Shown: positions 4,023 to 26,600 of the stretch, in pieces
How positions within the stretch are numbered: position 1 is the stretch's first letter
How the letters are laid out: the number at the start of each line of letters is the position of its first letter
IMG/VR virus record: IMGVR_UViG_3300025835_000022
Coordinates: 1 to 31,790 of that record
Length of the DNA stretch: 31,790 nucleotides
Direction: 5' to 3' (one strand)
Source: a virus
Lineage: Duplodnaviria; Caudoviricetes
Notes under the pieces: generated by a model
What the model saw: only the letters and a program-made list of their open reading frames with translations
Told to the model about the DNA's origin: nothing
Databases searched by the model: none
Translations under genes and position numbers: made by a program

Positions 4023-4048
4023 AAAAAAACCACAGAATAAATCTGTGG
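4023..4048 (-). terminator. Intrinsic terminator 17 nt upstream of the tail adaptor gene
   Basis: Minus strand CCACAGA-TTTAT-TCTGTGG followed by T7. Confidence 0.8.
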
Positions 4049-4080
4049 GTGTGTGGTAAAGTATCACTTCACTTACTTAA

Positions 4081-4109
4081 AATATAGACCTACATTATCC
4101 TAATTGCAA
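4081..4109 (-). promoter_or_regulatory. Sigma70-type promoter upstream of the tail-module leader/terminator
   Basis: TTGCAA (4109-4104), 17-nt spacer, TATATT (4086-4081). Confidence 0.55.
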
Positions 4110-7100
4110 CTGGTTTTTTTTATTTATTCTAAATGCTATTTTTTTAGGTTTTTTTAATTCTTGTTTAATTTGTCCAGATGTTATTTTTATAGTTTTAGGT
4201 GAGGGCGGTTTGGAAATTTTATAAACTTTTGCTTTAGTTATTCCTGATTTTATTTTTAGTTTCTTAAAGGTTATTTTTTTAGGCTTAATAGATTTAGTAG
4301 ATATCGCTTTTATTTTTAACTTGGGGGTTGCTCTTATTTTTATTTTTTTACCTGACGATTTTTTAGAGGATGTTGATTTTTGTTTAATAAGTACTTGTAG
4401 TTTTTTTTCAGCTTCTTCTTTTGTTATCTGTCCCAATTCGTACAGTTTAACGATATTATTAGACTGTGTTGTAATGGCACTGTTATATTTTGATATAAGT
4501 TTTTTATCCAGTTCTGTGTTGCCTGTAAATTTTGGTTCTTTTATAGGTGACAAGTTTATAATTTTACTCTTGTTATTATCATCTTTATATTCATATATAG
4601 TAGTTGGATCATAGTTTTCTATCCAATTTAGTATTTCTTTCCTTGCGATATCCTTTGTTATAGTTCCTTCTTTGAGTTGTTTTGCTAATTTAGTCTCAAG
4701 TTTTGCCTTAGCAATATTAGCTTCTTTTGATATATATCGTAAGTTATCTTCCGAATTATCTCCTCCAAGAGATAATGGAATAATATGATCCACTGCATCA
4801 CCCTGCTGAGGTGTTTTATTCAAAAACTGTTTTCTTTCAAGTATCATACCGTCACCCGACAATTTTCTCATTCTTTCTTCTGTAAATATAGCTTTTATAG
4901 TATTTATTGGATCAACTCCAATTCCTTTAGATGCGAGAGATATTTTTTCTATTATATTTTTAGGTGCTTCAGGAGAGGATTGATAAACTGATTTTTTAGG
5001 ATCTTGATTTGAAAAATAATTTATTCGTTTTGTTGCCTCTTCAGAAGTAATTATCCCTTCTTCAAGTTGTTTTGAAATTGCATTAATATTTTTAGAAATT
5101 GATTCTTTTTTTAATTGTTTAAATTCTGCATCTTTTTGTCTTTGTTCTTCAGCCTCTTTAGCTCCAAATTGCGTAATCTTAATTCCTCCCATTCTGGCAA
5201 TAGATTGAGGAACTGTTTGCGTTCTTCCATACATATCTTTTCCACCACTTGCAACTGATGCTATATCTATTGCGCTATTTACAGGAGGTGGTAAATAGCT
5301 TCTTCCTGCAAATATAGCTTGATTTTTTAACTTTTCATCCGATGTGAGTGTTGAAGGTTTATATTTATTTTCATTAAGATCTGATATTGGTTTACCCCTA
5401 AAGTCTTTATTGACTGCAAGTTGTATTAAAGGAGAGAGTAAAGGATCATTTGCGTTCATTGCTATATTGGAGGCAACATCTTTTTTTGGATTAATATTAG
5501 GAATAAAAGGAAACATTTTACTAGTACTTGTTATTTCATTGTTTGCAAAGAAAGGAGATATATATCGAGCTGCGTTTATTTCACCAAAAGAAGTTTGCCA
5601 AGTAAGAGGAATATTTAATCCCGGTATCTTAGGAGCACCAAACCTATCTTCTCTTGTCACTCGATCTTTATCGGTTTCACCTGATAATTTACTTGAAAGT
5701 CTGGCAACACCATATAAAGTACCTAAAAATATTATAAGTCCTAATGGATTATTAATTGCTCCGTTTTTAATAATACGAATTAAATCACCTTGAAACTTTA
5801 TAAAAACTGACCCTATAACTGGAGTTTTAGCCCACGTATCATAGAATTTTCCTACATTAGCGTAATTTTGAAAACCATCTGCTACCTTTCTTGTTGCTTC
5901 CTCTAAAGTAAATCCTTTATCAAGAAGAGCCTTAAAAGCAGCAACCTTATATACATCATCTGTTCCACCGTAAAAACTCTGTACTTTATCAACAATCTTA
6001 ACGAGAGGGCTAGTTCTTTTACCTAACGCAAGATCATTAATTTGAGCTAACTTATCTACAAAATCAGTACGTGTTATATCAGTTCCTACAATCCCTTTTC
6101 TCATCAAATAATCTGAAAATTGCTTAAAACTTGATGGATTACTTTTGAAGTCTAATATTTTTTTATTTAACGTTAAAGGGTCAACCCCTGTAACAAAACC
6201 AAAAACATTGTCAGATACGATATTTCCTACGTTGGTTGTTGGATTAAATACTGTTAACAATTTTTTCTGTAACTGCCTTATAGGCATTCTGTCATAAGCT
6301 CTAAAGACGTCATATAGATTTTGCATAGCGGTATTAGAATAAAAGAAGCCTTTTAAGTCCTCTGCCACACTATTAAGTACAAATTTACCCGACAGTTTTC
6401 CATATGCGGGAGAGTCTGAAAGTTTTATAAAACCTTTTTTTTCAACAGAAGATATAAATTGAGAATTGTTCACAAGAAAATCAGTATATTTTTTAATAGC
6501 TGTATTTGTTTCAACCTGTGCTAATCTTTTACCAAGACCATAAACTGGATCATTAAGTGAATTTTCAATTTTCCATACATCAAGGTTTTTTCTTTGTTTA
6601 TATAAATCATTAACTATCTTTTTACCTTGTGTTACAAATTTATTAACTTCGGCGGGAAGTTCCATCACATCATATAGTCGAGGAGTATATTTTCCTTTAT
6701 TTGCAATATAAAGTTCTTTTGAGATATGACCGTTTGCATAAGAAGTATCGTGTACTAAATCAAGACCTTCTCGTATAATTCCGTACGCTTGTTTTTCTAC
6801 ATCTGTTAACTGATTAAAGGTTACTTTTGTTTTAGAAATACTTGGGTCTAATACTGCGTTTATTCTTTCAAGTGAATTTTCATTATCTCCAAGAGATTTA
6901 TATATAGAATCCATAACGTTATATGCCCTTTCTCTTGCTGTTGATATACTGCCTCGCAAATCCATAGAAGCAGTTGATCTTTCTGGACTCATTCCTATTC
7001 CTCTAAAAAAGTTTTGTAAAGTTGACGCTGCATTTCTTATATACTTATTTTCACTTCCAAGACCCGCCTCTACTTTACTAGATATTCCTTCTTGTGCTTT

Positions 7101-9029
7101 TCTTAATATTTTTGTATATGTACTTGCTTCTTTAATACCTCCTACTGGATTTTTAGTTGAATAACCTAACGTCTTTTCAATAAAATTGTCTATTTTTGCC
7201 GGTAACTCTGACGCCACTTGTTCTTGTGTTGGTATTTTATTTTGTGATACAATCTTATATGTATTGGTCAATAAAGGTTTATTAGATAATGGTAATTTTA
7301 CTTGTTTTGTGGCTACTTTTGTTTCATCCACAACCGCCTTCATGCGATTTTGAGTGCCAAACATTCCCTCACTAACTCCTCCCTGTACTACACTTGGATA
7401 TTTATTACTAAATTCTATTTTCCATTGAGTTAAATTTGCTGACTTATTTGTAATATTATTCCATTCTTGTCTTATATTTTTATTTTCCATTAACTTAAAA
7501 AATTCTTGTTTATTAAAATCTTTAGGGATTATTCCTTTCTCAAAACCTAAACTTTTAAGTAATCCTTTTCCACCCTCTGACAATGAAGTTGTATTTATTT
7601 CATTAACATTATTTTTTATCATCCATTCCGAAAGAAATTTTCTACCATCTCCTATTTTTTGATTTTTGGTTGCTATATTTACAATATCAGCTACTCCATT
7701 ATTAACTTTTGCCTCTAAATAAATTTCATTCCCGTTAGGTAATTTATAAAGGTTATTATTCGTGGTTGTTAATAAAGAAGATTGAGATTTTACCCATTTT
7801 GGTATTTCATTATAAGAAGTTATATTTTTTACTCCTCCCTGTACTGCACCTAAATATTTCTTTTCTAATATCTGTAATTCTGGTAATGTTTTAGCTTTTA
7901 TAACCTCATCTATTGGTAAATTTTTCTTTTCTAATGTTTGAAATAATTTTAATCGTAAATCTGCTGTTTGTTTAGCAATAGGGTCACCCATTCGTTTTAA
8001 ATTCCATCCTCCTTGAGAATAAGTTTGTCTAATTAAATCAGCATCTTTCTGCCGATTTGCTTGAAATTTTGTTGATCCCAATATATCTGGTGGATTTGTA
8101 GTTTTTACTCCTCCCTGTACTGGGGGTACTTTTTTAGCTTGGTTATAGAAGTCAACTAAATTTTTATATCCATTATTATTTAATATTTTTAATGCTTCCT
8201 GACTTGTTGTATAATCTCCAATTGTTTTATCTTTTCCTGTTAATATTTTTATTGCTCGCTGTATACCATTTCCACTAATAAACTCCTCCGCACTCTTATA
8301 CTTCCTCGCCTCTTGGACGAGGGGTTCAAGTTTACCAAGTAACTTTTTGCCTGCCTTTACTCCTTTTGAGCCAACAACTTCCCCTTCTTCTACTATCTGT
8401 TTCCTAAATTTAGCAAAATTTGCTTTAACTCCTGCTTTACTTAAATTTTTTATTCCTCTCTTTGGACTGACTCCTCCTATAAAAAATGGAGCTATAAATC
8501 CCGCTGCCTCTGGTACATAAGGAATTTTACCTGCTGGAGTTCTCCTTACTCCCTCTTCTGCTTTTTGTCCTACCATACTATAAAAAGGAATTTCTTTACC
8601 TACTTTTGAGAGAAAATTTACCACCTTAGGAATTTTACCAGCTAGTTGTGGTGCTCCAAATGTTACCGATGGAGGAAGCGTAGCTAAAGTACCACCCAAC
8701 TGTTCACCAAAATTTTTAGTAAGGGTCTGACGCATAGGATTTGTAAGTCCAGTATATAAACCACCTGCTTGTCTTATAATTGGTCGTACAGGATTTCTTA
8801 CAAAACTAGATACATTCTGCCGTACTTGTTGTGGAACATTGATTATCTTATAAGCAGATTGTGGATTACGTTGCGCCCAATTAGTTATTCCCTGTTGTGC
8901 CGCTTTAACTGGAGTAAATTTACCACCTTGAAATAAGCCTTTATTATCATTAAAAGACGATGATAGTTTAGATTGGGCAGAGGAAAAACCCTGTCTTAAT
9001 TTATCCATCAAGTCTCGAAGTGCGGCCAT
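4095..9029 (-). CDS. Large internal virion / DNA-ejection (polyvalent) protein with GNAT-like module, HNH motif and Lys-rich tail
   Basis: 1644 aa next to tail genes. VDHIIPLSLGGDNSEDNLRYISKEANIAK is an HNH signature; NQKIGDGRKFL...GKGLLKSLGF is GNAT-like; the last ~95 aa are extremely Lys-rich. Confidence 0.65.
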   Translation of the reverse strand: MAALRDLMDKLRQGFSSAQSKLSSSFNDNKGLFQGGKFTPVKAAQQGITNWAQRNPQSAYKIINVPQQVRQNVSSFVRNPVRPIIRQAGGLYTGLTNPMRQTLTKNFGEQLGGTLATLPPSVTFGAPQLAGKIPKVVNFLSKVGKEIPFYSMVGQKAEEGVRRTPAGKIPYVPEAAGFIAPFFIGGVSPKRGIKNLSKAGVKANFAKFRKQIVEEGEVVGSKGVKAGKKLLGKLEPLVQEARKYKSAEEFISGNGIQRAIKILTGKDKTIGDYTTSQEALKILNNNGYKNLVDFYNQAKKVPPVQGGVKTTNPPDILGSTKFQANRQKDADLIRQTYSQGGWNLKRMGDPIAKQTADLRLKLFQTLEKKNLPIDEVIKAKTLPELQILEKKYLGAVQGGVKNITSYNEIPKWVKSQSSLLTTTNNNLYKLPNGNEIYLEAKVNNGVADIVNIATKNQKIGDGRKFLSEWMIKNNVNEINTTSLSEGGKGLLKSLGFEKGIIPKDFNKQEFFKLMENKNIRQEWNNITNKSANLTQWKIEFSNKYPSVVQGGVSEGMFGTQNRMKAVVDETKVATKQVKLPLSNKPLLTNTYKIVSQNKIPTQEQVASELPAKIDNFIEKTLGYSTKNPVGGIKEASTYTKILRKAQEGISSKVEAGLGSENKYIRNAASTLQNFFRGIGMSPERSTASMDLRGSISTARERAYNVMDSIYKSLGDNENSLERINAVLDPSISKTKVTFNQLTDVEKQAYGIIREGLDLVHDTSYANGHISKELYIANKGKYTPRLYDVMELPAEVNKFVTQGKKIVNDLYKQRKNLDVWKIENSLNDPVYGLGKRLAQVETNTAIKKYTDFLVNNSQFISSVEKKGFIKLSDSPAYGKLSGKFVLNSVAEDLKGFFYSNTAMQNLYDVFRAYDRMPIRQLQKKLLTVFNPTTNVGNIVSDNVFGFVTGVDPLTLNKKILDFKSNPSSFKQFSDYLMRKGIVGTDITRTDFVDKLAQINDLALGKRTSPLVKIVDKVQSFYGGTDDVYKVAAFKALLDKGFTLEEATRKVADGFQNYANVGKFYDTWAKTPVIGSVFIKFQGDLIRIIKNGAINNPLGLIIFLGTLYGVARLSSKLSGETDKDRVTREDRFGAPKIPGLNIPLTWQTSFGEINAARYISPFFANNEITSTSKMFPFIPNINPKKDVASNIAMNANDPLLSPLIQLAVNKDFRGKPISDLNENKYKPSTLTSDEKLKNQAIFAGRSYLPPPVNSAIDIASVASGGKDMYGRTQTVPQSIARMGGIKITQFGAKEAEEQRQKDAEFKQLKKESISKNINAISKQLEEGIITSEEATKRINYFSNQDPKKSVYQSSPEAPKNIIEKISLASKGIGVDPINTIKAIFTEERMRKLSGDGMILERKQFLNKTPQQGDAVDHIIPLSLGGDNSEDNLRYISKEANIAKAKLETKLAKQLKEGTITKDIARKEILNWIENYDPTTIYEYKDDNNKSKIINLSPIKEPKFTGNTELDKKLISKYNSAITTQSNNIVKLYELGQITKEEAEKKLQVLIKQKSTSSKKSSGKKIKIRATPKLKIKAISTKSIKPKKITFKKLKIKSGITKAKVYKISKPPSPKTIKITSGQIKQELKKPKKIAFRINKKNQLQLG
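7375..8121. repeat. Three identical 15-bp direct repeats ACTCCTCCCTGTACT (encoding VQGGV) inside the large gene
   Basis: Copies at 7375-7389, 7831-7845 and 8107-8121; spacings of 456 and 276 nt are both in frame. Confidence 0.9.
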
Positions 9030-10538: not shown

Positions 10539-10809
10539 ATTTTCTGTTTAACATTTAACGACGTCTATATATATCCCGACCCCTACCCCTGACACCTATT
10601 CTAACCCCACCCTCTATCTCCAATCTATTCTCCGCATTCACCTCTCTATCTCCCCCCTGTACGGTTTCTACTTAGTACAGAGTAAGTGTAGTTAGATGCG
10701 TTTGAATGAGTTGTCAATAGGCTCTTGTGAACTTCTTATTATCGGCAAACCTACTTTCGTAGGAAATATGGGACGAGCACCCTGCCTCCCTAAACTAATA
10801 ATAATTTTT

Positions 10810-10998
10810 TCATTTCAATTTAAACTCATGTTTTGCCATTGCCTCGAGCTTCATAATATCCCCTATTAGTCGCCTTGCCATATCTGCAGGTAATATATAC
10901 GCTTTCTCAAGTCCCCGGACAAGCCTTGTTAATCTGGCAACCGCAAATTCTCTTATCTGAACCTCGGTCAAAGGTTTCCTATCATTTTTTACATCCAT
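10810..10998 (-). CDS. Hypothetical protein, 62 aa (start revised to MDVKNDRK)
   Basis: The track's ATG at 11037 lies inside a terminator hairpin. The ATG at 10998 has an A-rich leader like the other genes. Confidence 0.6.
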   Translation of the reverse strand: MDVKNDRKPLTEVQIREFAVARLTRLVRGLEKAYILPADMARRLIGDIMKLEAMAKHEFKLK

Positions 10999-11020: not shown

Positions 11021-11066
11021 AAAAAAAACCGCCCCATATCTCAAATCACTTGAAATATTAGGCGGT
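11021..11066 (-). terminator. Intrinsic terminator in the leader of the small-ORF/ejection module
   Basis: Minus strand ACCGCCT-AATATTTCAAG-TGA-TTTGAGATAT-GGGGCGG followed by T8. Confidence 0.8.
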
Positions 11067-11095
11067 CTCGTGAAAACACAGTTTCCGTCAATAAA

Positions 11096-11124
11096 ATAGT
11101 AGCACTCTATTTTTTGCTTGTCAA
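11096..11124 (-). promoter_or_regulatory. Sigma70-type promoter
   Basis: TTGACA (11124-11119), 17-nt spacer, TACTAT (11101-11096). The 17-mer AAAATGCTATTGACAAG is identical to the one at the portal promoter. Confidence 0.7.
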
Positions 11125-11135
11125 TAGCATTTTAT

Positions 11136-11654
11136 TTATATAAGATATTTTTCAACTGTTTTCATTAGGATCTCTTCAATTTCAGCACTTGTTTTACCTT
11201 GTCTTAATTTCTTAATTGTTTTATCAAAGTCTATTTCTTTAACATTACGAAGTGATTTATAAGCATTAACAAAACCTTTGATACGGTCGTATACCGCCTC
11301 TTTATCAGTATCCTCATCAATATCTAATTCCTTTTTAAGTTGGTCTAATACTTTGTTATAACTTCTGGTCGTTGGCTCATAACCTTCAACTTTTATCCTT
11401 TTTTTTATAAACTCATCAATTCCATTGTACCCTTCAATAATATCTGTTGGTAAAAAATCTTTACGTTCCCCAACATCAAACAAATCAAGAATATAGTCAG
11501 TTTTATTTTGGCGTTCCCATATTTCAAGAGGCATTGTGTCATCATCAATTATGGTTGAAGTTTTATCTTCGGGTTTAATATCTACTGTTTTTGCTTTTGG
11601 TATATCAACTGCTTTAGTTACTTCGGTTTTTGATCCAACAATATTATCTATCAT
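11136..11654 (-). CDS. Hypothetical protein, 172 aa
   Basis: ATGA-coupled to the last glycosyltransferase gene; charged and helical; no recognised motif. Confidence 0.7.
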   Translation of the reverse strand: MIDNIVGSKTEVTKAVDIPKAKTVDIKPEDKTSTIIDDDTMPLEIWERQNKTDYILDLFDVGERKDFLPTDIIEGYNGIDEFIKKRIKVEGYEPTTRSYNKVLDQLKKELDIDEDTDKEAVYDRIKGFVNAYKSLRNVKEIDFDKTIKKLRQGKTSAEIEEILMKTVEKYLI

Positions 11655-12616
11655 AGTTTTGAGTATACATCAATCCATTCTTTATAATGATTTTCCAAGT
11701 TAAAATTATCCTTAACGTATTTATAATTACTTTTTCCTATCTTTACCCTAAAATCCTTATTTTCTATCAGTTTGGATAATTTAATTATCCAGTCTATCGA
11801 ACTTTCTGCGGTCAGTAAACTGTAATTATTATAAACTATCTTAGAACAGACCGAAGGAATTTTAAGTAAAGAATATTCTAAAAATTTAATATTCGATTTA
11901 CTTCGGTTAAAATCATTATCTGTTAATGGAGCTATCCCTATATCAAGTGCCATTGAAGATAACCTCATAGGGTAAGCTTCAAATGATGTTGGTTCATACA
12001 CTTCAAGACGGGATTGATGTTTAATATAATTTTTAAACCTGAAGTCCCCACATACCACAAACTTAACCTGCGGGTATTTATCCATTATCTTATTCATTAT
12101 CGGACAAATAAACTTAATATCTTCAAAGTGAGAGCTTGACCCTGTCCAACCAATTCTAATATCATCGGTATTGTTATCTATTTTCGAAACACCAAACCAT
12201 TTAGGGTGATAGTAATTAGGAAGAATAAGAGTATTGCTATTTAGCCTTTTCAACTTATCGGCTAAATATTCATTAGTTGTTGTAACGGCATTAGCTTGTC
12301 TTATAGTTTTAGATATTATTTTATTAGCATCAAGTACTTTATGTTGTTTATAGTAAGGATTAGTTTTACCAACACTTAAATTATCATCAACATCAACAAC
12401 AACTTTTTTACCCATCTTAAAAATCATATCTAACCCTTTTTTATCAACTATGTTATGAAGTACAACAATATCGGCGTTTGTTACTTCCTCTTCATTAATC
12501 CCTTTTAAAGATACAAAAGCAGACCAGTGAGGATTGTACCTTATATATTCAAAAGGAAATATCAATCTCCAATAAATAGCTCCTGAGGTGTCACTATACG
12601 CAATTACTTTTTTCAT
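11651..12616 (-). CDS. GT-B fold glycosyltransferase (GT4-like)
   Basis: Motifs VVVDVDD, RIGWTGSSSH.ED and LDIGIAPL.DN.FNRSKSNIKFLEYS, typical of phage GT4-like enzymes. Confidence 0.85.
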   Translation of the reverse strand: MKKVIAYSDTSGAIYWRLIFPFEYIRYNPHWSAFVSLKGINEEEVTNADIVVLHNIVDKKGLDMIFKMGKKVVVDVDDNLSVGKTNPYYKQHKVLDANKIISKTIRQANAVTTTNEYLADKLKRLNSNTLILPNYYHPKWFGVSKIDNNTDDIRIGWTGSSSHFEDIKFICPIMNKIMDKYPQVKFVVCGDFRFKNYIKHQSRLEVYEPTSFEAYPMRLSSMALDIGIAPLTDNDFNRSKSNIKFLEYSLLKIPSVCSKIVYNNYSLLTAESSIDWIIKLSKLIENKDFRVKIGKSNYKYVKDNFNLENHYKEWIDVYSKL

Positions 12617-14013
12617 TTTATACTTAACATTTCGGACACAAATTTAAAAGTAGCATCCGTTGGTATTTTAGTTAAGTTAATAATATTATCAATAATATTA
12701 TTTTCCGAAGGTCCACTTACATGCCCGTGAAGTTTCCATTTATACTCATCGGTAAATAACCAAAACTTCTCATCAATCGAATGATTATATTCATAGTACT
12801 TCTTTGTTCGAGGGGATTTTGGCTGGTTACGGTCAACTGCTAAAAACCATCCTTTTTTATCAAGATATTTAACCAAACTTTTATTGTATAACCAAAATGG
12901 AGCTTTAAAGCCTTTGACATAGGGAATACCATACTTTTTAAATACATCATCAATCGCTCTAAATATAATCGGGTAGTCCTCTTCTTTTACATTTTCAAAC
13001 TCCCTATGTTTATGGGTCAGTCCATGAGGAATTATCTCAATCCAGTCAAGGTTAGCCTTTATCTGTTTTAATATCTCATCACGTTGAAAGTCTGTAAAAG
13101 ACGGATAGTATTGATAATCAAATGGTATCATAAACATTGACACCTTTAGATTAGGTAAAAGCTTCTTGAGTTTAAACAAGTAAAATAGATTATTATTTTC
13201 AAGTGAAAAATCATCAAAATCTAATACAACCGTCTTTGGTCGTTTTACTTCCTGCTGGGTAATTTTTATAAATTCATCAACCTGTGTGTCACCCTTACTT
13301 ATTCTTTTCTTAATATTATCAATAGTCATTGTTTCAAAATCATCAGCAAGAGCATCAACTCTTTTATCTCCTAAAAATATAACTGGACACCCGCAATATA
13401 AGGCTTCTTCATGTAAGGCGCTACCTACAAATAAATAAAGCCGTTCAGCTTTACGAAGCATGTCGGCAAGTTCTTTTTTAGTCTTAGGAAATAAGTCTTT
13501 ACCTGTTTTTATCTCAATACCTTTGTCCTTGATAAACTTTGGTATTCTAACATTCCTATTAATTGCTTTCCCAACATAATAGATTATCCCTTTTCGTTTT
13601 TCTTTTCCTTTATAGAATATCGTTTCATCTATCTCTCTTAAATGTAAGACAGGAGACTTTTTATCAAATGCCCGATGGTATGTAAAAGTAAATTCCCCAT
13701 TATCAGGCAGTTTATAAAAATCCCATTTCATTATTTCCCAGTAAAACTCTGGCTTATTCATAAACCACCTAACTACACGTGTAGCACCGCATGGATTACC
13801 AAGTACTGTATCAGGATAGACCACTATCCAATCAGTTCTTTTTTGTACTTCCTCATCAGTTATTGAGGGGTTTATCCATTTAGGATTGCCAATCTTTGCA
13901 GTAATATAGGCAGTTTGTCCTTTTTTATTAAGACGATGGCATAGATCAAAAAGTGTTATGTTTCCAACTGATGTATCATCAAAATTTGGACAAACTATTA
14001 AATAAGGTCTCAT
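12613..14013 (-). CDS. Two-domain protein: N-terminal glycosyltransferase-like domain plus C-terminal NodB/polysaccharide-deacetylase-like domain
   Basis: N-terminal half has IVVYPD...NP...VVRW, YYVGK and EALYCGCPV. C-terminal half has VVLDFDD, HGLTH, GFKAPFW and LHGH (NodB-type metal-binding motifs). Confidence 0.7.
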   Translation of the reverse strand: MRPYLIVCPNFDDTSVGNITLFDLCHRLNKKGQTAYITAKIGNPKWINPSITDEEVQKRTDWIVVYPDTVLGNPCGATRVVRWFMNKPEFYWEIMKWDFYKLPDNGEFTFTYHRAFDKKSPVLHLREIDETIFYKGKEKRKGIIYYVGKAINRNVRIPKFIKDKGIEIKTGKDLFPKTKKELADMLRKAERLYLFVGSALHEEALYCGCPVIFLGDKRVDALADDFETMTIDNIKKRISKGDTQVDEFIKITQQEVKRPKTVVLDFDDFSLENNNLFYLFKLKKLLPNLKVSMFMIPFDYQYYPSFTDFQRDEILKQIKANLDWIEIIPHGLTHKHREFENVKEEDYPIIFRAIDDVFKKYGIPYVKGFKAPFWLYNKSLVKYLDKKGWFLAVDRNQPKSPRTKKYYEYNHSIDEKFWLFTDEYKWKLHGHVSGPSENNIIDNIINLTKIPTDATFKFVSEMLSIK

Positions 14014-14135
14014 AAAAATACATTATAAATATAACAAAAACAAAATAAAAATAAGACTAGGTAAAAAGGATAAACTGAATATATCATTATCAATATAAAT
14101 AATACAAATAATATAAATAATTCTTTATTACTCAT
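14010..14135 (-). CDS. Very hydrophobic 41-aa membrane peptide (not in ORF track)
   Basis: MSNKELFILFVLFILIMIYSVYPFYLVLFLFCFCYIYNVFL*; ATGA overlaps with both flanking genes and fills the gap exactly. Confidence 0.65.
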   Translation of the reverse strand: MSNKELFILFVLFILIMIYSVYPFYLVLFLFCFCYIYNVFL

Positions 14136-14791
14136 TTAAATAATATTGAGCTTGCTATATCCCTGTTAATATAATGCTGTTCTGTCTTACATTGTCCTAC
14201 TCCCCCGTCTTGTAAATCTATTACTTCCGCCTCATACGACGGTATAACTAAATTATTCCCACGATTGGAAACACTTAAAATAATATCATCAATATTTTCT
14301 TTTGGCAGGTCTTTATTATCTTCTCTAACTATAAAAACCTCCGATAGTATATGTTTAGGAACAAAATAAAGTCTTGTTAAAATATCAGAGTTGACTGGTT
14401 GATTAGTCGCCTTTACATACTTTCCATTAAAATATGGCCTTTCTCCCTCAACAAGTTTTGTCCCCTCATATCCTAAAGTATGTCCGGGATATTTTTTAGC
14501 ATATAATATAAAATTACTTAATGTATCTTTTGTAACAGTCATATCATCATCTATAAAAAAGAAGTAGTCGGTATCAATGGTTAGCGCTAAAGCATATCTT
14601 GTAATTACTGGAAAATTACTGTCAGCGTTAATCGAGGTAACCCCCTCACTAAAATAATTAACCGTTGAATTATCATTAAAAACAATTATCTTATCCGGAG
14701 GAACTGTAGATTTTTTCAAGTCTTCAACTATACGGTCAATGTTTCCAACTCTCTCTTGATAATGACAAAGAATAATAGCTGTTACTGTCAT
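14132..14791 (-). CDS. GT-A fold glycosyltransferase (GT2-like)
   Basis: VTAIILCH..R, IIVFND, YFFFIDDD (DxD) and IDDI motifs. Confidence 0.8.
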   Translation of the reverse strand: MTVTAIILCHYQERVGNIDRIVEDLKKSTVPPDKIIVFNDNSTVNYFSEGVTSINADSNFPVITRYALALTIDTDYFFFIDDDMTVTKDTLSNFILYAKKYPGHTLGYEGTKLVEGERPYFNGKYVKATNQPVNSDILTRLYFVPKHILSEVFIVREDNKDLPKENIDDIILSVSNRGNNLVIPSYEAEVIDLQDGGVGQCKTEQHYINRDIASSILFK

Positions 14792-16242
14792 AATGGTTTT
14801 GTAATTTTTTCTTTTTCCCGCTTATTAAAATATTCTTTATATCTTTTATGTTGGACTTCCGTACCCTCTATATGCTCAACCTTTAAATCTTCAATATAAA
14901 GCTGTTGATAGCCATTGCGGGTTAACCATTGAGATAGTTCTAAATCTTGAAGACCGTGAAGAGGTGAATCCTCCGTCCATCTAAAAGTTTTATAAATTGA
15001 AGCTGGGGCTATATGACATAAACCACCAATATGTGAAACCACTCCTATTAAATGATTGTTAAATTTACCATAAGCTAAACGGGGAGAACCACCGGGATTA
15101 TCACGTAACCCCTCAGGGTAAGGTGACATTGCCACCATATGATTGCGTTTATATAGTTCAACTACTGATTTTAGCCAATTATTAGAAAGCGATAAACAAT
15201 CATTGTCATATTTGATTACAATATCATATTTATAAGCTTCAAAATCTTGTTCAACAGTTGTAAACGGAAGTTTTGAATTACACCCTTTAATTATACGGAC
15301 AAGTGCTTGATTTGAGGCTATACTTATCCCTTTATTTTTTTTGTTATATATTTTTATATACCTATTATTTTCTTTTAACCATTTTTCTGTCCCATCAGTT
15401 GACCCATTATCAACAACATAGTGATCATACTTATAACCTGCTTTTTTTTCTAACGACTTAAAACATTTCTTTGTATAAAATAACCTATCCTTAGTTAGAC
15501 TAAATACCGCCACTTTTATTTCATGTGGCGTGTGAAGATAAGGTAAATCTATTTCAACGTCATAAGAACTCCACGCTGGGACCATAAAGGCTTTTTCATC
15601 TTCTTTTCTTTGAGACTTCATTCCTTTGTGTAAAAAATAGTGTGTAATTATTTTTGGCACTCGTAAAAAATGTTTTCCAGCTTTTGCCATTCTTACCCAT
15701 AAGTTCCAATCAACATACTTTCTATACCTTTCGTCCCACCCTCCAACACTAAACAAAGCCTCACGTTTAATCAGAACGTCTGAAGTATCTATATAATTAC
15801 GCTGTAAAAGTAAAAAAGGATTAAAGTTTGAATATACTCCTACCTGTGACGGTATTTTTCCCTCACTATCTATTATTAATCTATCCCCATAAACTAAATC
15901 TATATTTTTATTCTGTTCAATCGTTTTATATAAAGTTTGTAAATGGTCTTTAAGATATTGACAGTCGTCATCTAAGTAGGCTATATACTGTCCCTTTGCT
16001 TGCTTTGTTGCCTCGTTTTTAGGAAAGGTGTCACAGCCATAATTCTTATCAGCATAGATATAGATAATTCTTTTATCTTGTATTGTGTTTATCCAGTCTT
16101 GTGTCCCGTCTGTTGAATGGTCATCATAAATAATTATTTCAAAATCTTTAAATGATTGTACGAGGACTGACTTAACTGCTTTTTTTAAGAAAGATAATCT
16201 GTTAAATGTAGTAATAATGACGCTTATAATCGGTTTTTTCAT
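14788..16242 (-). CDS. Glycosyltransferase with two GT2 domains
   Basis: ISVIITTFNR, IIYDDHSTDGT and IAYLDDD; second domain with VVDNGSTDGT and KYDND. Confidence 0.9.
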   Translation of the reverse strand: MKKPIISVIITTFNRLSFLKKAVKSVLVQSFKDFEIIIYDDHSTDGTQDWINTIQDKRIIYIYADKNYGCDTFPKNEATKQAKGQYIAYLDDDCQYLKDHLQTLYKTIEQNKNIDLVYGDRLIIDSEGKIPSQVGVYSNFNPFLLLQRNYIDTSDVLIKREALFSVGGWDERYRKYVDWNLWVRMAKAGKHFLRVPKIITHYFLHKGMKSQRKEDEKAFMVPAWSSYDVEIDLPYLHTPHEIKVAVFSLTKDRLFYTKKCFKSLEKKAGYKYDHYVVDNGSTDGTEKWLKENNRYIKIYNKKNKGISIASNQALVRIIKGCNSKLPFTTVEQDFEAYKYDIVIKYDNDCLSLSNNWLKSVVELYKRNHMVAMSPYPEGLRDNPGGSPRLAYGKFNNHLIGVVSHIGGLCHIAPASIYKTFRWTEDSPLHGLQDLELSQWLTRNGYQQLYIEDLKVEHIEGTEVQHKRYKEYFNKREKEKITKPL

Positions 16243-16595: not shown

Positions 16596-16630
16596 CCATC
16601 CCCCCGCTCGGGATAGGAGCGGGGAAATGG
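16596..16630 (-). other. GC-rich stem-loop after the capsid gene, without a U-tract (mRNA stabiliser or weak terminator)
   Basis: CCAT..CCCCGCTC-CTATCCC-GAGCGGGG.ATGG, followed by CAAGATAAAATG rather than poly-T. Confidence 0.65.
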
Positions 16631-16652
16631 ACTAATTAACTTTTTTAATCAA

Positions 16653-19705: not shown

Positions 19706-21682
19706 TTATCTAAATAATTGTTGTGCAAATGCTTGAATGTCCGGGTCTTGCATTGTTTGTTGTGGTTGTGGTGGTTGTGTTATTTGAGGTTGGGGTGGTA
19801 CTTGTTGAGGTATAGGGGAAGATATAGGCTGTTGTGGTGGTTGTCCTCCCATTTGAGGTTGACCCTGTAGCATCTCTTGAGGTATTTCACTATTTGGCAT
19901 GGTTGGATTCGATACTTGAGTCCCCATTTGATCTGGTGGGATATCAATAATTATTTTATCCCAATCTTGTGTACCTGATGAAACTATTACCCGTTGAAAT
20001 AGTTCAGCTATATCAAGTGTTTTTCCTTTTTTAGCAAGTGCCTGATTAAGTTGTCCCCCTGCCTGTGGGTCAAGAGCCATCATAAGTAGGCTCCTTGAGT
20101 TATTTAAATCCTGTTCTTGATCAACTTTATAAGTAGATCCTGACGTTATTTGAAAATCAAACTTAGTATCTTTGAATAGATTGCCTGTTATCTTAGCTTG
20201 TCCCCGTTCCCCTGAAGTAAACATTTCGACTATATCGGGATATGCTTTTTCTATCTGTTCAATTTCCGACTTAAAAAGTCTCATTGTTAAAGGTTTCTCA
20301 AAATTCTTAACAGTTAGATCAACAAACCCTCCCAGTACTTCCTCTAAAGCCTTTTCCATCATGAAACGGTCCCAGCTATCCCTTGCCGACTCACGGACAG
20401 ATAACATTTTAAGAGCTTGAGGGGTTTTCCCTTGAGTTATATCTACGTTTTTTGAAACGGTTGTATCAGTTGTCCCGGCTTGGTTCATTAAAGCGGCTGT
20501 TAGAAAACTATATGTTGATTGAAATGTAGCAATTCCTTGAGTATTACTTTGAAACTGACGAATAGAATTAGGTTTAATCTCAAGCCATTTGGAAGCTGGC
20601 TCTTGGACAATAGTTGAAGGGACTATACCATCGGGGTTAAGAATAATAGGTGGAAAGATTGACATTTTTACACCGTCTAAATAAAGATTAATAAGTGAGT
20701 TAACCGCAAACTGTAATGTTTTACCACGTTCGAACTCTCCAAGCCCATAAATACTATCTAAAAGAGGAAACCCATATTTGGCAGTTATCGGAAGTTTGTT
20801 ATTTTTCTGAGGGTTAGGGATATCCCGAAGTACTAATTTCTCGTCCCCAAATTCCGAACAGATAGTAATCCAACGGTCTTTTCTGTATTCTGTATAAATT
20901 TCTATCTGCTTAAAAGCATTATCAGACTTTGTTGAAGGTTGACGTGTTCGTTCTACATAACTTCGCTTTTCATCATTAGTTTGACCCTTAACTGAATTTT
21001 GTCCATCTTTAATTTTAAGAAGCACTGTGTCTATATTTTTCCAACTATCTTTATTTCTTGCTTTTAACCAGTCTTCATTAACATGTGTAGTTACACCAAA
21101 CCAATCAGCATCGTTTAGTGAATATTTACCTGGTTGTGGGTGACAGTCCCGAATAGGAAGTAAAAAGAAATCGGGAGAGGAAAAATCATCTTTAGATACC
21201 CAGTCGGTGAGAGCAAATAACGACCCATACATTAACGAATAAATATCCCAGAGACGACATTTAATAAGGAAATCAAACTGAGCGTTGGCATTGGGAAGTA
21301 TCCATTTATCAAGAAGCAGGTTCATAAGTAGATTTTTACCTAAATCATCTCTTGATATTGCCATCGCCTTACCTGTTGGATTTTGCGCCATAACTCTGGC
21401 CGCACGTTCCAAAACTATAGTTGAAAGTCTTGGATCAAATACCTGAGACTTATTAACATGAACATCCTCTTCATCAATTAGTTTATTAACAAGTATTGAC
21501 TCTTTTTCATCCCATCCTGTTAATTGTGGACTTACCATATCAGTCCATGAATCATCTTTATGTTCCCAGACTTCTTTAAATAAGGTTTTTGATTTTAATG
21601 AAGATATTACTTTCTCCTGTTGTGTATCTTTTACTTTAGATACTTCGGTAGATTGTTTAGTAGATTCTTTTTTTTTTGACAT
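19706..21682 (-). CDS. Portal protein (P22-like)
   Basis: 658 aa after terminase; LPIT..YGFP..DSIYGLGE.E and QFAVNSLINLYLD motifs; P/Q-rich tail. Confidence 0.85.
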   Translation of the reverse strand: MSKKKESTKQSTEVSKVKDTQQEKVISSLKSKTLFKEVWEHKDDSWTDMVSPQLTGWDEKESILVNKLIDEEDVHVNKSQVFDPRLSTIVLERAARVMAQNPTGKAMAISRDDLGKNLLMNLLLDKWILPNANAQFDFLIKCRLWDIYSLMYGSLFALTDWVSKDDFSSPDFFLLPIRDCHPQPGKYSLNDADWFGVTTHVNEDWLKARNKDSWKNIDTVLLKIKDGQNSVKGQTNDEKRSYVERTRQPSTKSDNAFKQIEIYTEYRKDRWITICSEFGDEKLVLRDIPNPQKNNKLPITAKYGFPLLDSIYGLGEFERGKTLQFAVNSLINLYLDGVKMSIFPPIILNPDGIVPSTIVQEPASKWLEIKPNSIRQFQSNTQGIATFQSTYSFLTAALMNQAGTTDTTVSKNVDITQGKTPQALKMLSVRESARDSWDRFMMEKALEEVLGGFVDLTVKNFEKPLTMRLFKSEIEQIEKAYPDIVEMFTSGERGQAKITGNLFKDTKFDFQITSGSTYKVDQEQDLNNSRSLLMMALDPQAGGQLNQALAKKGKTLDIAELFQRVIVSSGTQDWDKIIIDIPPDQMGTQVSNPTMPNSEIPQEMLQGQPQMGGQPPQQPISSPIPQQVPPQPQITQPPQPQQTMQDPDIQAFAQQLFR

Positions 21683-21721
21683 AAAAAAACACGTCTTCCC
21701 AAATTACATGGAAAAACGTGT
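21683..21721 (-). terminator. Intrinsic terminator whose U-tract abuts the portal ATG
   Basis: CACGTTTTTCCA-TGTAATT-TGGGAAGACGTG followed by T7 and then ATG. Confidence 0.75.
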
Positions 21722-21747
21722 GACATGGATATCACTCCGATGAAAAA

Positions 21748-21776
21748 AGATTAATATAAAAATATCTACTTGTCAA
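21748..21776 (-). promoter_or_regulatory. Sigma70-type promoter upstream of the portal leader/terminator
   Basis: TTGACA (21776-21771), 17-nt spacer, TAATCT (21753-21748). Confidence 0.6.
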
Positions 21777-22077
21777 TAGCATTTTCATTTTTATAATTCT
21801 TTTTATTATGAAAATAGTTAACAAGCTCTTTAATATTTCCCTCAGAAAATGTTATTGTAAAGTTAAGAACTCCTGATTGTTTTCTATCAACCATATTTTT
21901 AATTAATTGTACAACCTCAGCAGTGGCCTTGGCATTATCTGAAGTATGATATTTTATCTTTCTAAATCTTTGAGACTCTAAAGCGACAGGTTTTCCCTGA
22001 TGAGTTATTACTGAAAAATTAACCTCCCCATACTCGGTTTTTGAGATTTCAAGTAACATGTCATCAATTATGCTCAT
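21766..22077 (-). CDS. Protein with two tandem YezD/DUF2292-like repeats (start probably MSIIDD)
   Basis: ISKTEYGEVNFSVITHQGKPVALE and DRKQSGVLNFTITFSEGNIKEL each match the helix-G-strand-G-strand pattern recalled for YezD/DUF2292; recognised by eye only. Confidence 0.5.
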   Translation of the reverse strand: MSIIDDMLLEISKTEYGEVNFSVITHQGKPVALESQRFRKIKYHTSDNAKATAEVVQLIKNMVDRKQSGVLNFTITFSEGNIKELVNYFHNKKNYKNENAIDK

Positions 22078-22078
22078 A

Positions 22079-22738
22079 TTAATAAAAGCTTTTATTTTTC
22101 CAAGCTTCTTTTGGAAATTCACTTATAACATGTTCGTAATCGGAAGCTTTTTTTGGTCGATCTACATTTAAATAAAGTTGATAAGCAATCGAAAGTGACA
22201 TAATTAGGTCATCATGTGCGTTAAGTTCAGCTTGAGCTTTCCAGATGGATGAGGACCTAACAACAACAAAAGAATACATTTCATTAATTGTTTTTTTATC
22301 ATAAATTTTAAGTACCCTATTGTCTATTGCCTGTTTTAAATCAGATAACATTTTTCCACGATTAGAAGAAGTGGTTGTCCACCCGTATTTTTTAGGTTCA
22401 CTTTCCGTTATCATCCCAATTCCTGTTGGCTGTTGCCAAACATCAAACCAGTTTAAACGGTTCATGGCAAGCATACGGTCTATTTCATAACTACCTCCGG
22501 CGTTAGTTTCCGGAGCAATACAAGGTTTAATTTGAGTTATATTATATATCTTTTCAAGAATACGGACCACGTCATTGGTTACATCTGATGCGGTTTTGTT
22601 AGAATGAATAACTAAAGGCACATCCATTTTAGTTTTTGATATAAATTGTACGGCACAATAATCATTGACACCTGCGGCCATATCATAACCCGCCACAATT
22701 TGCTCATCTTTTAATATCTCCCTAAATTGTCTATTCAT
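22079..22738 (-). CDS. terL: Terminase large subunit, C-terminal RNase H-like nuclease domain, encoded as a separate ORF
   Basis: IVAGYDMAAG..DY, APETN..G, YGWTT...R..M and HDDLIMSLSIA motifs. Confidence 0.85.
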   Translation of the reverse strand: MNRQFREILKDEQIVAGYDMAAGVNDYCAVQFISKTKMDVPLVIHSNKTASDVTNDVVRILEKIYNITQIKPCIAPETNAGGSYEIDRMLAMNRLNWFDVWQQPTGIGMITESEPKKYGWTTTSSNRGKMLSDLKQAIDNRVLKIYDKKTINEMYSFVVVRSSSIWKAQAELNAHDDLIMSLSIAYQLYLNVDRPKKASDYEHVISEFPKEAWKNKSFY

Positions 22739-24650
22739 AAATAAGTTTTTGAGTAATAGGTTCTATTGATTGGAATAGGTAATATTGTAAAGCCTGCTTA
22801 TCAAAATAAAGTGAACCACTTGTTAAATACGCCTCCTCTTCCGTCATCGGATATTCTTGAGGAAATAACCTATCTAATTCTTTTTTTTTCATATCTAAAA
22901 ATGTCTGATCATATTCCCATAGAGGATTGTAAAAATGTTTCTTAAACCCCCGATCATCTCCTACGTCCCATAGCTTTTTAAACCAATTAAAACCGTTAGC
23001 GGTTGTTTCAATTATTACCCTTCCATTTGGAACAACGGCTTGGATAGCTGATCCAAATATAGATTCAGGATCGGGATAGAAAGCCAACTCTGAATTAGAA
23101 ACCACGCCACATACAGTTAAAAATGAATGATTTTTGTTATCAACTTCTATATCATAGGTTTCTTTCTCTTCCACTTCTTCAATGCTTTTAATTTTTACGA
23201 ATAAATACCCATTTTTAGGTGAAGTGTTACGAGTAATAACATATTTTTGTTTACTTGCTCCTTTACTATGATCTTTATTCTTATCAAATCCATGTTCACG
23301 CAAAACATAAATAGGTTTAGTCTGCTTATCATATCTAAATCTTTTTTCGTGATAATCTAACGCTAAAAGACGGTGATTTAATAAAGCATAAATCTGTTTC
23401 ATTTGTCTTGCTATTTTTTCATGAATAGTAGTTATAGAAATACATTTCCATTTCAATTTTGCCTTACTTCCATCACCATCTCTCCAACCCTCATATAATC
23501 CTTTTAAAAAAGTTTTAGGAAACTGGTATAAAAAGCGGGTGGGAACATTTTTATTTGTTACTTTTCCTACTAATTTTTCAATAAATGAAGCTAATTCTAA
23601 AGAATAATAAATAATCAACTTTCTTGTTCCACTTTTTGTTTTGTTTATTTCAACGGTAGGTTTTAATGGTAATAAATCAATAAATTTTTTATAATATTCC
23701 TCATCTTTATGACAAGCGAATGTTATTCTCCCTTTATTGATATTCCCTTCTGCCAAATAATAACCTAAAAAATATCCTAATTTATAATTGGTTTTCACCA
23801 CAAAATCATCAGTTTTTTGATTAGCTATTTTTTGAACATAATTAATAGGAAGATGAATACAGTTTTTTATTTTCGGAATTGTTAAAAATTTAATATAAGC
23901 ACCTGTTTTAGGATAAGCCCATAAAATATAATTGTCTGTTGTTAACTCTCCGGCTTTTTTCCAAATTGGTTCACCTATATTTCTATAATAGTGCCACGCC
24001 TTACTTTTACCCATTACCCTTATTTTATGATCTTTACTAACTAAGATTTCTTCATTGCTTAACCATGTTTTAATTTTTAAAAGAGGTTTAACTCCTGTTT
24101 TGATTTTATTAATGACTTTGGTGGTTTTCCCATCTTCAGCTACCAAAATGTCATTAATATTTATTTTTTCTATCGGCTTGGTTGTTCCATCGGCACATAA
24201 TATTTTAGTTCCTTTTCCAATACATAAATGTAAATTTGTTATAGTTTTGCTCCTCCCAAATTGAGTATTTTTAGCGCTACCTAATTTATAATACGAGTTC
24301 ATAACAGGATTATATAGTTCCGTCTTAGAGTTATATTTTAAAGGCACTTTACGACCCGTTCTCTCTTCGTAGGATTGAATATAATACTTAACTCTTGCAA
24401 GTAGTCCTGTTGCATTGTCATCAATATCAGCAACCACCACGTTATAAGCATTTTCAGTTAAAATAAAATCAGCCGTAAACATTGCAAGTATTATTGAAGA
24501 AAAACCCATTTGACGACTTTTTAAAATAATATCTTTTCCTGACATATTAATTAAAAAATCAGTTTGAGTTTTGTTTGGAATAAAATTAACTACCTCTTGT
24601 TTTTTATTGACTATTAAAAGTTTGTCAGTGATCCATTTTAAATAATTCAT
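22731..24650 (-). CDS. terL: Terminase large subunit, N-terminal ATPase domain, intein-containing
   Basis: IILKSRQMGFS (Walker A region), NLHL|SELAF (Walker B split by the intein), IETTANG and FPQEYP. Confidence 0.9.
   Translation of the reverse strand: MNYLKWITDKLLIVNKKQEVVNFIPNKTQTDFLINMSGKDIILKSRQMGFSSIILAMFTADFILTENAYNVVVADIDDNATGLLARVKYYIQSYEERTGRKVPLKYNSKTELYNPVMNSYYKLGSAKNTQFGRSKTITNLHLCIGKGTKILCADGTTKPIEKININDILVAEDGKTTKVINKIKTGVKPLLKIKTWLSNEEILVSKDHKIRVMGKSKAWHYYRNIGEPIWKKAGELTTDNYILWAYPKTGAYIKFLTIPKIKNCIHLPINYVQKIANQKTDDFVVKTNYKLGYFLGYYLAEGNINKGRITFACHKDEEYYKKFIDLLPLKPTVEINKTKSGTRKLIIYYSLELASFIEKLVGKVTNKNVPTRFLYQFPKTFLKGLYEGWRDGDGSKAKLKWKCISITTIHEKIARQMKQIYALLNHRLLALDYHEKRFRYDKQTKPIYVLREHGFDKNKDHSKGASKQKYVITRNTSPKNGYLFVKIKSIEEVEEKETYDIEVDNKNHSFLTVCGVVSNSELAFYPDPESIFGSAIQAVVPNGRVIIETTANGFNWFKKLWDVGDDRGFKKHFYNPLWEYDQTFLDMKKKELDRLFPQEYPMTEEEAYLTSGSLYFDKQALQYYLFQSIEPITQKLIYE
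23094..24224 (-). mobile_element. Intein (377 aa) with LAGLIDADG homing endonuclease
   Basis: Starts CIGKGTKILCADG; block B VSKDHKI; LAGLIDADG motifs LGYYLAEG and YEGWRDGDG; block F TYDIEV; ends VVSN with Ser at +1. Confidence 0.92.
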
Positions 24651-25243: not shown

Positions 25244-25453
25244 TTAACTATCAATCTTCCATAAATAACGCTTGTTAAAAATTATTCCTTGACCTTTTAA
25301 ATCCGTAAGTAACATGAAGTCCCGATTGGAAGAATTATATTCTATATTTACTTCATAGTTTCCATTCATTTTTGTCCATATTTCCCCAACCGTATCTTGA
25401 ACTTGTGTTTCCATGATTTGACCATCTTTTTTTAACGTGTATATAACAGACAT
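25244..25453 (-). CDS. Hypothetical protein, first gene of the leftward operon
   Basis: 69 aa immediately downstream of the leftward promoter. Confidence 0.6.
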   Translation of the reverse strand: MSVIYTLKKDGQIMETQVQDTVGEIWTKMNGNYEVNIEYNSSNRDFMLLTDLKGQGIIFNKRYLWKIDS

Positions 25454-25461
25454 ACTCTATC

Positions 25462-25534
25462 AGAGTATATAAAATTAAACAAATTGTCAAGTATTATATA
25501 TTCATTTGACAAACGGTTTTGAAAGATATATATT
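25462..25534. promoter_or_regulatory. Back-to-back divergent sigma70 promoters
   Basis: Minus strand TTGACA(25490-25485)-17-TACTCT; plus strand TTGACA(25506-25511)-17-TATATT; located at the strand switch. Confidence 0.75.
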
Positions 25535-25649
25535 TAAATTATCGACCGAGGTAACTGACGATATAGTAGCTATAAATTTGGCAGTAAGTTTAGGTAACAC
25601 GAAGGCTTGTTGCCAAGTTTGTAGAACGATTAGAAATTTAAATTTAACA

Positions 25650-25895: not shown

Positions 25896-26600
25896 ATGAA
25901 TGATATACCCCAAAAAGAAAAAGGTTTTTTACAAATAACTTCAGGTAAAAAAGAAAATGATATTTTATCCGCTCTAATTTCTATGAGATTAAATGGAACT
26001 GAATATCAAATAATACTAACTGTTATTAGAAAAACATGGGGATGGAATAAAAAAGAAGATTGGATTTCTATTAGTCAATTTGAAAAAATAACAGGAAAAG
26101 ATAGAAGTTTTATTATAAAAACTATAGGTGGACTAGTGGACAAAAAACTACTAGTGAAGAAAAGTACACTAGGTAAGATAACTAAATTATCTATTCAGAA
26201 GGATATAACGCTCTGGGATATTAAACTAGTGGATAATACACCACTAGTGGACAAAAAACCACTTACTAGTGGACTTTTAGCGTCGCAACTAGTGGACAAA
26301 AAACCACCCACAATAAACACTATTACAAAAGATACTAATACAATTACTCCGCAAGCGGAGTTAGTTTTATATTTTTCTAATATTTTTAATAAAAGATTCA
26401 AAAAACCATATATGCCATTTAAGACAGATTATATAAATATGGCAAGTCTTACAAAAACATATCCTCTTGACAAAATAAAAACATATATTGAATGGTACAT
26501 TTATTGGAATAATTGGAAAACAAAATCAGGATATAATATTGGTCATTTTTACAAGAATATAAATTCTGTTACAAGTTCGGCATCACCGTATAGCTATTAA
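25896..26600 (+). CDS. Lambda-O-like replication initiator
   Basis: IILTVIRKTWGWNKKEDWISISQFEKITG matches the O-family N-terminus; internal iterons; upstream of the helicase. Confidence 0.85.
   Translation: MNDIPQKEKGFLQITSGKKENDILSALISMRLNGTEYQIILTVIRKTWGWNKKEDWISISQFEKITGKDRSFIIKTIGGLVDKKLLVKKSTLGKITKLSIQKDITLWDIKLVDNTPLVDKKPLTSGLLASQLVDKKPPTINTITKDTNTITPQAELVLYFSNIFNKRFKKPYMPFKTDYINMASLTKTYPLDKIKTYIEWYIYWNNWKTKSGYNIGHFYKNINSVTSSASPYSY
26132..26305 (+). repeat. Iterons of the replication origin (ACTAGTGGAC core)
   Basis: Copies start at 26132, 26150 (degenerate), 26225, 26243, 26265 and 26288; three read ACTAGTGGACAAAAAAC; AT-rich DNA follows. Confidence 0.85.

Follow-up and report, generated by a model that had tools for sequence, protein, structure and literature searches.

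Gene order and viral context

The window, by which we mean the whole 31,790-nt stretch of DNA that was analysed, is a linear virus record that is about 84% complete. Its minus strand carries the genes for terminase, portal, capsid, glycosyltransferases, the large putative ejection proteins, adaptor and tail, and its plus strand the replication genes (Table 1). The portal protein itself has no direct match in Pfam or PHROG; many of its homologs contain PF23899, which we take to be a portal family. Since portal relatives at 30-34% identity lie within long contigs of Saccharibacteria and Moranbacteria genomes, the host is likely to be found among the ultra-small CPR bacteria (Patescibacteria); closer portal relatives come from short contigs, in bins with mixed labels. 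When annotated phages and plasmids were searched, two small proteins had no relatives and the portal had one weak match, and a direct search for adaptor relatives returned none.

The large terminase (22079-24650, minus strand) is split between one ORF for the ATPase part and a second ORF of 219 aa, a division found again in relatives such as L004, and the ATPase part carries a LAGLIDADG-type intein (Hint, Intein_splicing and LAGLIDADG_3 matches). Four sugar-modifying genes (11651-16242, minus strand), three with glycosyltransferase matches and one DUF2334-like, lie on the stretch of the head module that separates the capsid gene from leader 2, and a very strong GC-rich hairpin without a U-tract is found 3' of the capsid gene (16600-16635, minus strand). 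The 1644-aa protein has an HNH-like stretch near residues 1410-1460 and a lysine-rich tail. On the plus strand, four iteron-like 20-nt repeats (26132-26307) are located within a replication O-like gene. Divergent promoter-like sites and palindromes at 25450-25535 (TTGTCAA...TTGACAA, and an inverted repeat near 25452-25470) head the terminase operon and the replication genes, and may set the timing of the small gene described below.

Table 1. Features of the three leader regions and of the neighbouring genes
Feature	Position	Strand	Description
Promoter-like site 1	21748..21785	-	TTGACA 21776-21771, 17 nt, TAATCT 21753-21748; shared 17-mer
Leader 1 hairpin	21717..21739	-	CG, GA loop, 6-bp stem, bulged A, CG (2x1 internal loop)
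Intrinsic terminator 1 (predicted)	21683..21721	-	stem 21721-21689, 13 pairs, -16.8 kcal/mol, + T7; portal ATG directly next
Promoter-like site 2	11096..11133	-	TTGACA (11124)-17-TACTAT, TG ahead of -10; shared 17-mer
Leader 2 hairpin	11063..11087	-	two alternative forms; prefix fold -5.2 kcal/mol
Intrinsic terminator 2 (predicted)	11021..11067	-	stem 11067-11027, -21.2 kcal/mol, + T8
Promoter-like site 3	4081..4109	-	TTGCAA (4109)-17-TATATT, within 3' end of 1644-aa gene
Leader 3 hairpin	4049..4072	-	stem 4067-4053; GTG, AA loop, stem, bulged A, CAC (2x1)
Intrinsic terminator 3 (predicted)	4023..4048	-	stem 4048-4030, -9.7 kcal/mol, + T7
Small ORF	21766..22077	-	103 aa, tandem DUF2292/YezD/OscA-like, candidate RNA-binding antiterminator; last gene of terminase operon
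Portal gene	19706..21682	-	658 aa, first gene of head module, between terminase and major capsid genes
1644-aa gene	4095-9029	-	putative ejection gene; LPD38 match below cut-off
Adaptor gene	ATG 4005	-	SU10 adaptor PF24175, E 5e-4, under cut-off

The three leaders of the window

All three virion-gene blocks are headed by a short hairpin that stands between a putative sigma70 promoter and a putative intrinsic terminator. A first-pass annotation of this DNA had described these layouts on the minus strand, and all three were found where it had placed them, with the 17-nt promoter spacers and the runs of seven or eight T residues that it reported; the portal ATG at 21682 likewise follows the U-tract of leader 1 with zero gap. 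The sequence that it gave as common to promoters 1 and 2 is an exact 17-mer which occurs only twice on the minus strand (21785 and 11133), and the hairpins, said to be followed by AC, can all be drawn as G-NN-G...C-A-C. A third CTATTGACAA at 10720 (10560-10720, minus strand) has no good -10 box and is followed by a G/A-rich non-coding tract of about 100 nt.

The small hairpin core of leader 1 comprises 21735-21720, and the hairpin covers the first 5 nt of the 5' arm of the terminator (prefix best fold -5.9 kcal/mol). For leader 2, the hairpin takes the form of a 6-bp stem (11086-11072) or of a longer structure that reaches, with its basal CGG/CCG, 3 nt into the terminator core; downstream of its terminator come an ATG at 10998 (62-aa ORF), further small ORFs and then the large putative ejection genes. 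In the best prefix folds leaders 1 and 2 each take 3 nt of the terminator core and leader 3 takes 0, its AA/A hairpin adjoining the terminator without overlap, which counts against the reading favoured below. Whole leaders 1, 2 and 3 fold better than 200 of 200 shuffles (z -4.5, -5.4 and -4.4), and the small hairpins alone do not (z -0.5, +0.5 and -1.2). A loose promoter-plus-terminator scan of the window returned, for the minus strand, exactly these three cassettes, together with a pair of weak antisense cassettes on the plus strand; the same scan on 40 shuffled windows gave a mean of about 1, with one shuffle reaching 5, so that the cassette count within the window is modest evidence by itself and only suggestive.

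A small gene ahead of the portal gene

The first-pass annotation had singled out no factor that could act on the leaders; a candidate does lie in the window, the 103-aa ORF, which runs at its 3' end into the -35 box of leader 1. Relatives carry it as single units of 55-90 aa, as tandem fusions of 100-125 aa, the type present here, or as two adjacent genes, and, judged by profile comparison (hhalign probability 97.6%), the tandem and single phage forms are homologous. An AF2 model (pLDDT 84.5) shows helix-strand-strand twice and is mostly beta; the protein is basic in the strands (15 K+R of 103) and has no cysteine.

Neither the protein nor any other part of the window matches PF10055 (DUF2292), yet this is the top Pfam family in both alignments of the phage proteins, with weak matches at E 0.1 from 8/19 members (best E 2e-5) and 8/28 members, and NCBIfam sulfur_OscA (NF033785) is matched by 4/19 family members. 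Among the best 60 of 266 profile matches, 13 match PF10055 at E 0.01 and one exceeds the curated cut-off of 22 bits. Against five true DUF2292 proteins, hhalign gave a probability of 12% for the tandem profile and 58% for the single-unit form; helix, aromatic-Gly and the strand-turn-strand pattern are shared with DUF2292/YezD/OscA, whereas the phage form is tandem, falls below the family cut-offs and has a first strand two residues longer. The window protein thus appears distantly DUF2292-like through its relatives, and is not a scored member. Membership of the lambdoid Q proteins was also considered and rejected (PF03589, 15 bits against a cut-off of 26.7, E 0.028 for the window protein; 2/19 members match).

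A sequence search of solved structures gave nothing under E 0.15, and fold searches of PDB and BFVD gave no match at E 0.001, the best VIA Z being 7.0. Among solved folds, those of tail terminator/completion proteins come nearest to the model (rmsd 3.6-5.7, with Z reaching 7.0), and in the ESM Atlas only viral clusters were returned, at 0.85-0.88. A complex prediction for two copies of a single-unit relative scored 0.30, under the mark of 0.42.

Conservation among portal relatives

One hundred loci with portal relatives were fetched; with the window included, 96 had enough upstream DNA, and grouping at 90% identity left 72 clusters. In 60/72 clusters the portal gene is immediately preceded by a small ORF, a count that is partly circular since the profiles defining it were built from 47 of the same ORFs. 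Behind this ORF a terminator is present in 37/60 clusters and promoter plus terminator in 30/60; after other ORFs of the same loci, promoter plus terminator were found in 7 of 413 windows, and two of these seven are leaders 2 and 3 of the window itself. The conservation in related phages that the first-pass annotation had proposed to look for is seen at the portal gene and establishes that the layout did not arise by chance; with so few positives in the control, chance promoters in AT-rich DNA were rejected as an explanation. Two of the 12 clusters without an adjacent small ORF have the cassette, one locus being cut by the contig end and the other having the small gene about 7 kb upstream.

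Beyond the portal, the cassette stands ahead of an adaptor-sized gene (217-226 aa, matched by size and N-terminus only) in 4/14 longer records (G306, G308, G311 and G313), and in these 14 records cassettes also precede further genes on that strand. G309, a complete record, has the portal leader only, and G317 and G318 have none.

Counting against the favoured reading, 23/60 relatives with the small gene have no terminator behind it. Several of these go from promoter directly into the ATG; one group (L029, L053, L056, L067 and L071) keeps the hairpin and has a ribosome-binding site; a few form a competing stem whose U-tract is poor. G316, which lacks the portal terminator, has cassettes ahead of other genes, a pattern that fits a trans-acting factor yet shows that the portal gate is optional.

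Shape of the leader RNA

The sequence of the leader RNA is free, and what recurs is its shape: a basal stem, an internal loop with two unpaired nucleotides 5' and one 3', and above it an upper stem, the 3' strand of the basal stem lying at the start of the terminator. A fold with this 2x1 internal loop at the terminator base was found in 21/44 leaders, the mirror 1x2 loop in 2/44, other loop sizes in 3-11, and the 2x1 loop in 0-5 shuffled leaders (20 shuffles), the geometry having been picked after inspection of the sequences; the other 23/44 leaders have no good 2x1 fold. Most leaders with the fold draw 2-8 nt of the terminator core into the basal strand. Leaders are more alike within a genome (14.7, 22 pairs) than between genomes (11.8, 254 pairs; p 0.001) in a set of 24 hand-picked leaders, though the three leaders of the window resemble one another only weakly (scores 10, 16 and 11). 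Thirteen GA/A hairpins are 96% paired, with 7/8 pairs changed on both sides, counts that are not proof of structure since the hairpins were selected by a pattern that demands pairing. The Rfam search suggested by the first-pass annotation drew a blank: neither the leaders (E up to 1) nor eight related loci had a match, the RAT family included.

Linkage between the small protein and the leader

DUF2292 above the Pfam cut-off was found in 5/301 genomes of the phylum of a CPR-labelled bin. Directly 3' of three of these five chromosomal genes lies a 2x1 hairpin of the GA/A type that continues into a stem of terminator type, with a clear U-tract in two, and the loop of leader 1 is the same GA/A. 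Where an ORF is inserted between leader and portal gene (L021 and L052), the leader stays behind the small gene; in L073 and L081 the leader lies upstream of the terminase genes together with a similar-looking small ORF, judged by eye and missed by the profiles, and neither part is present at the portal. Across 34 loci, leader similarity tracks the small protein with the portal held fixed (partial rho 0.20, p 0.0005) but not the portal with the small protein held fixed (0.04, p 0.19); the correlation is small, and kinship, partly controlled, can inflate it.

Relation to known antitermination systems

Several established systems resemble parts of this arrangement. In the LicT/RAT system, an antiterminator hairpin is stabilised by a protein (PMC5393181). 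As in the BglG/SacY/LicT-RAT group described there, a short leader hairpin with an internal loop overlaps the 5' arm of an intrinsic terminator, and the partner of about 55 residues acting as a dimer has its counterpart in the tandem or adjacent pair of 50-60 aa units. RAT has two loops and the phage leaders a single 2x1 loop, the hairpin-terminator overlap is 8 nt in licS versus 0-5 nt in the window, and RAT gates sugar operons, whereas virion genes are concerned here. Unlike the RAT family, the loop sequence differs between phages, and the phage proteins lack CAT or PRD domains, for which no Pfam match was found in the window ORFs or in 47 family members.

The first-pass annotation had likened the layout to lambda pR'/tR' with Q, a comparison that stands in outline and fits loosely: promoter, short leader and terminator precede the late genes, and the factor gene lies just upstream of the first late promoter, as with lambda Q and the Q21-like BrrG (10.1101/2024.11.20.624540). 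According to the same text, Q loads at paused polymerase through a -10-like DNA element and acts processively from a single promoter. The phage, by contrast, has its gates at three places, all of them with a conserved RNA structure, and its candidate factor has a different predicted fold; an RNA structure competing with the terminator base is RAT-like, not Q-like. The bipartite conAn system of pLS20 (PMC8191782) is similar in that, on a mobile element, a protein gene precedes an RNA that brings about antitermination in cis; its RNA is large and its action processive, whereas the RNA here is about 25 nt long and repeated at each operon. Of the chromosomal relatives, oscA is cotranscribed with a sulfate-binding protein gene (PMC3596284).

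The literature on DUF2292 and yezD contained nothing on RNA binding by title or abstract start, and none was found for COG5583/PF10055. No description of this leader-hairpin system was found; the PMC6429828 supplements gave no match, and other large motif supplements, which were partly covered, could hide a candidate motif.

Proposed mechanism and alternatives

Taken together, these data suggest that a DUF2292-like protein probably binds the nascent hairpin and opens the terminators at the three virion blocks, in a manner resembling BglG/RAT. A LicT/RAT-type mechanism is likely because most hairpins overlap the terminator base, the geometry recurs and the leader tracks the protein. We infer that the promoters would fire and that transcripts would stop at the U-tracts, giving terminated RNAs of 50-70 nt, with terminator 1 also ending the terminase operon until the gates open. 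The small protein, made at the end of that operon, would bind the hairpin during transcription, its tandem form acting as a pseudo-dimer, and the bound hairpin would prevent formation of the terminator base, letting transcription proceed into the portal/head, ejection and tail genes. As to timing, we infer that expression of the terminase operon would raise the level of the protein until it opened every gate, replacing Q. Conservation of the layout, at the portal (30/60) and before the adaptor-sized gene (4/14), lends support to the gating logic put forward in the first-pass annotation.

The same small protein could instead act processively, with the hairpin as a boxB-like loading site from which a modified RNA polymerase would ignore local and later terminators, as with lambda boxB/N. 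The absence of terminator overlap in leader 3, the five relatives that keep the hairpin without a terminator before the portal and the basic residues in the strands would all suit such a mechanism, which we nevertheless consider unlikely, since processivity needs neither a promoter and hairpin at each gate nor the overlap of most hairpins with the terminator base, and the late strand has few strong internal terminators.

Somewhat less likely again, the terminators may be leaky, or the short RNAs may themselves be the product, for dosage control or as decoys for host DUF2292, the protein having another job, for instance in controlling translation or as part of the virion neck. Retention of the small gene in leaderless and terminator-less relatives would be expected in that case, and the tail terminator/completion folds point the same way, although with Z below 8 a match may reflect no more than a common arrangement; moreover, terminators of -17 to -33 kcal/mol with U7 before essential genes would hardly be expected to leak, the chromosomal homologs adjoin the same hairpin, and the leader sequence tracks the protein. 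That a different factor is responsible, either a phage protein, Q-like or promoter-binding, encoded in the part that the record lacks, or a host protein, acting via the 17-mer, seems the least probable, for although this 17-mer spans the -35 boxes of promoters 1 and 2, the incomplete record means that another regulator may be missing, and the small ORF has a weak Antiterm Q match in 2/19 family members, promoter 3 lacks the 17-mer, no window ORF matches Q, RinA or ArpU at E 0.01, as the first-pass annotation had noted by eye, and Q is a helical protein whereas the small protein is mostly beta in the model and has no cysteine, with no Q chain among the matches listed in the fold searches.

Extended beyond this virus, binding of the hairpin by the DUF2292-type protein could be a widespread phage late-gene switch, in which such a protein, found in bacterial chromosomes too, reads a 2x1 hairpin at every virion operon and in which protein and loop have diverged together into phage-specific pairs (GA/A, AA/A, UU/C and UA/C), a generalisation whose chances we put at about even. 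If true, DUF2292/YezD/OscA would constitute a new family of RNA-binding antiterminators, giving this conserved small-protein family a testable function, and CPR phages would have a Q-free lytic cascade, with one RNA switch per operon, a form of late-gene control unlike that by Q, N or late sigma factors. The parts are tiny (an RNA of about 25 nt and a protein of 60-100 aa) and occur as naturally diverged pairs, and could therefore yield orthogonal gene switches.

Variants at the portal start

In three relatives (L015, L027 and L075) a competing stem, with at most a rudimentary U-tract, comes after the hairpin and abuts the portal start codon, an arrangement that is possibly a translational version of the switch. 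In L024, L038, L049, L086 and L092 the -10 box lies 3-12 nt before the portal ATG, giving a leaderless mRNA, with the small gene still upstream. Finally, two loci have a tRNA-Met gene (L036:1157-1228 and L065:9922-9993), and L042 a similar stretch, after the terminator of the leader and ahead of the portal ATG, so that this gene would be gated as well.
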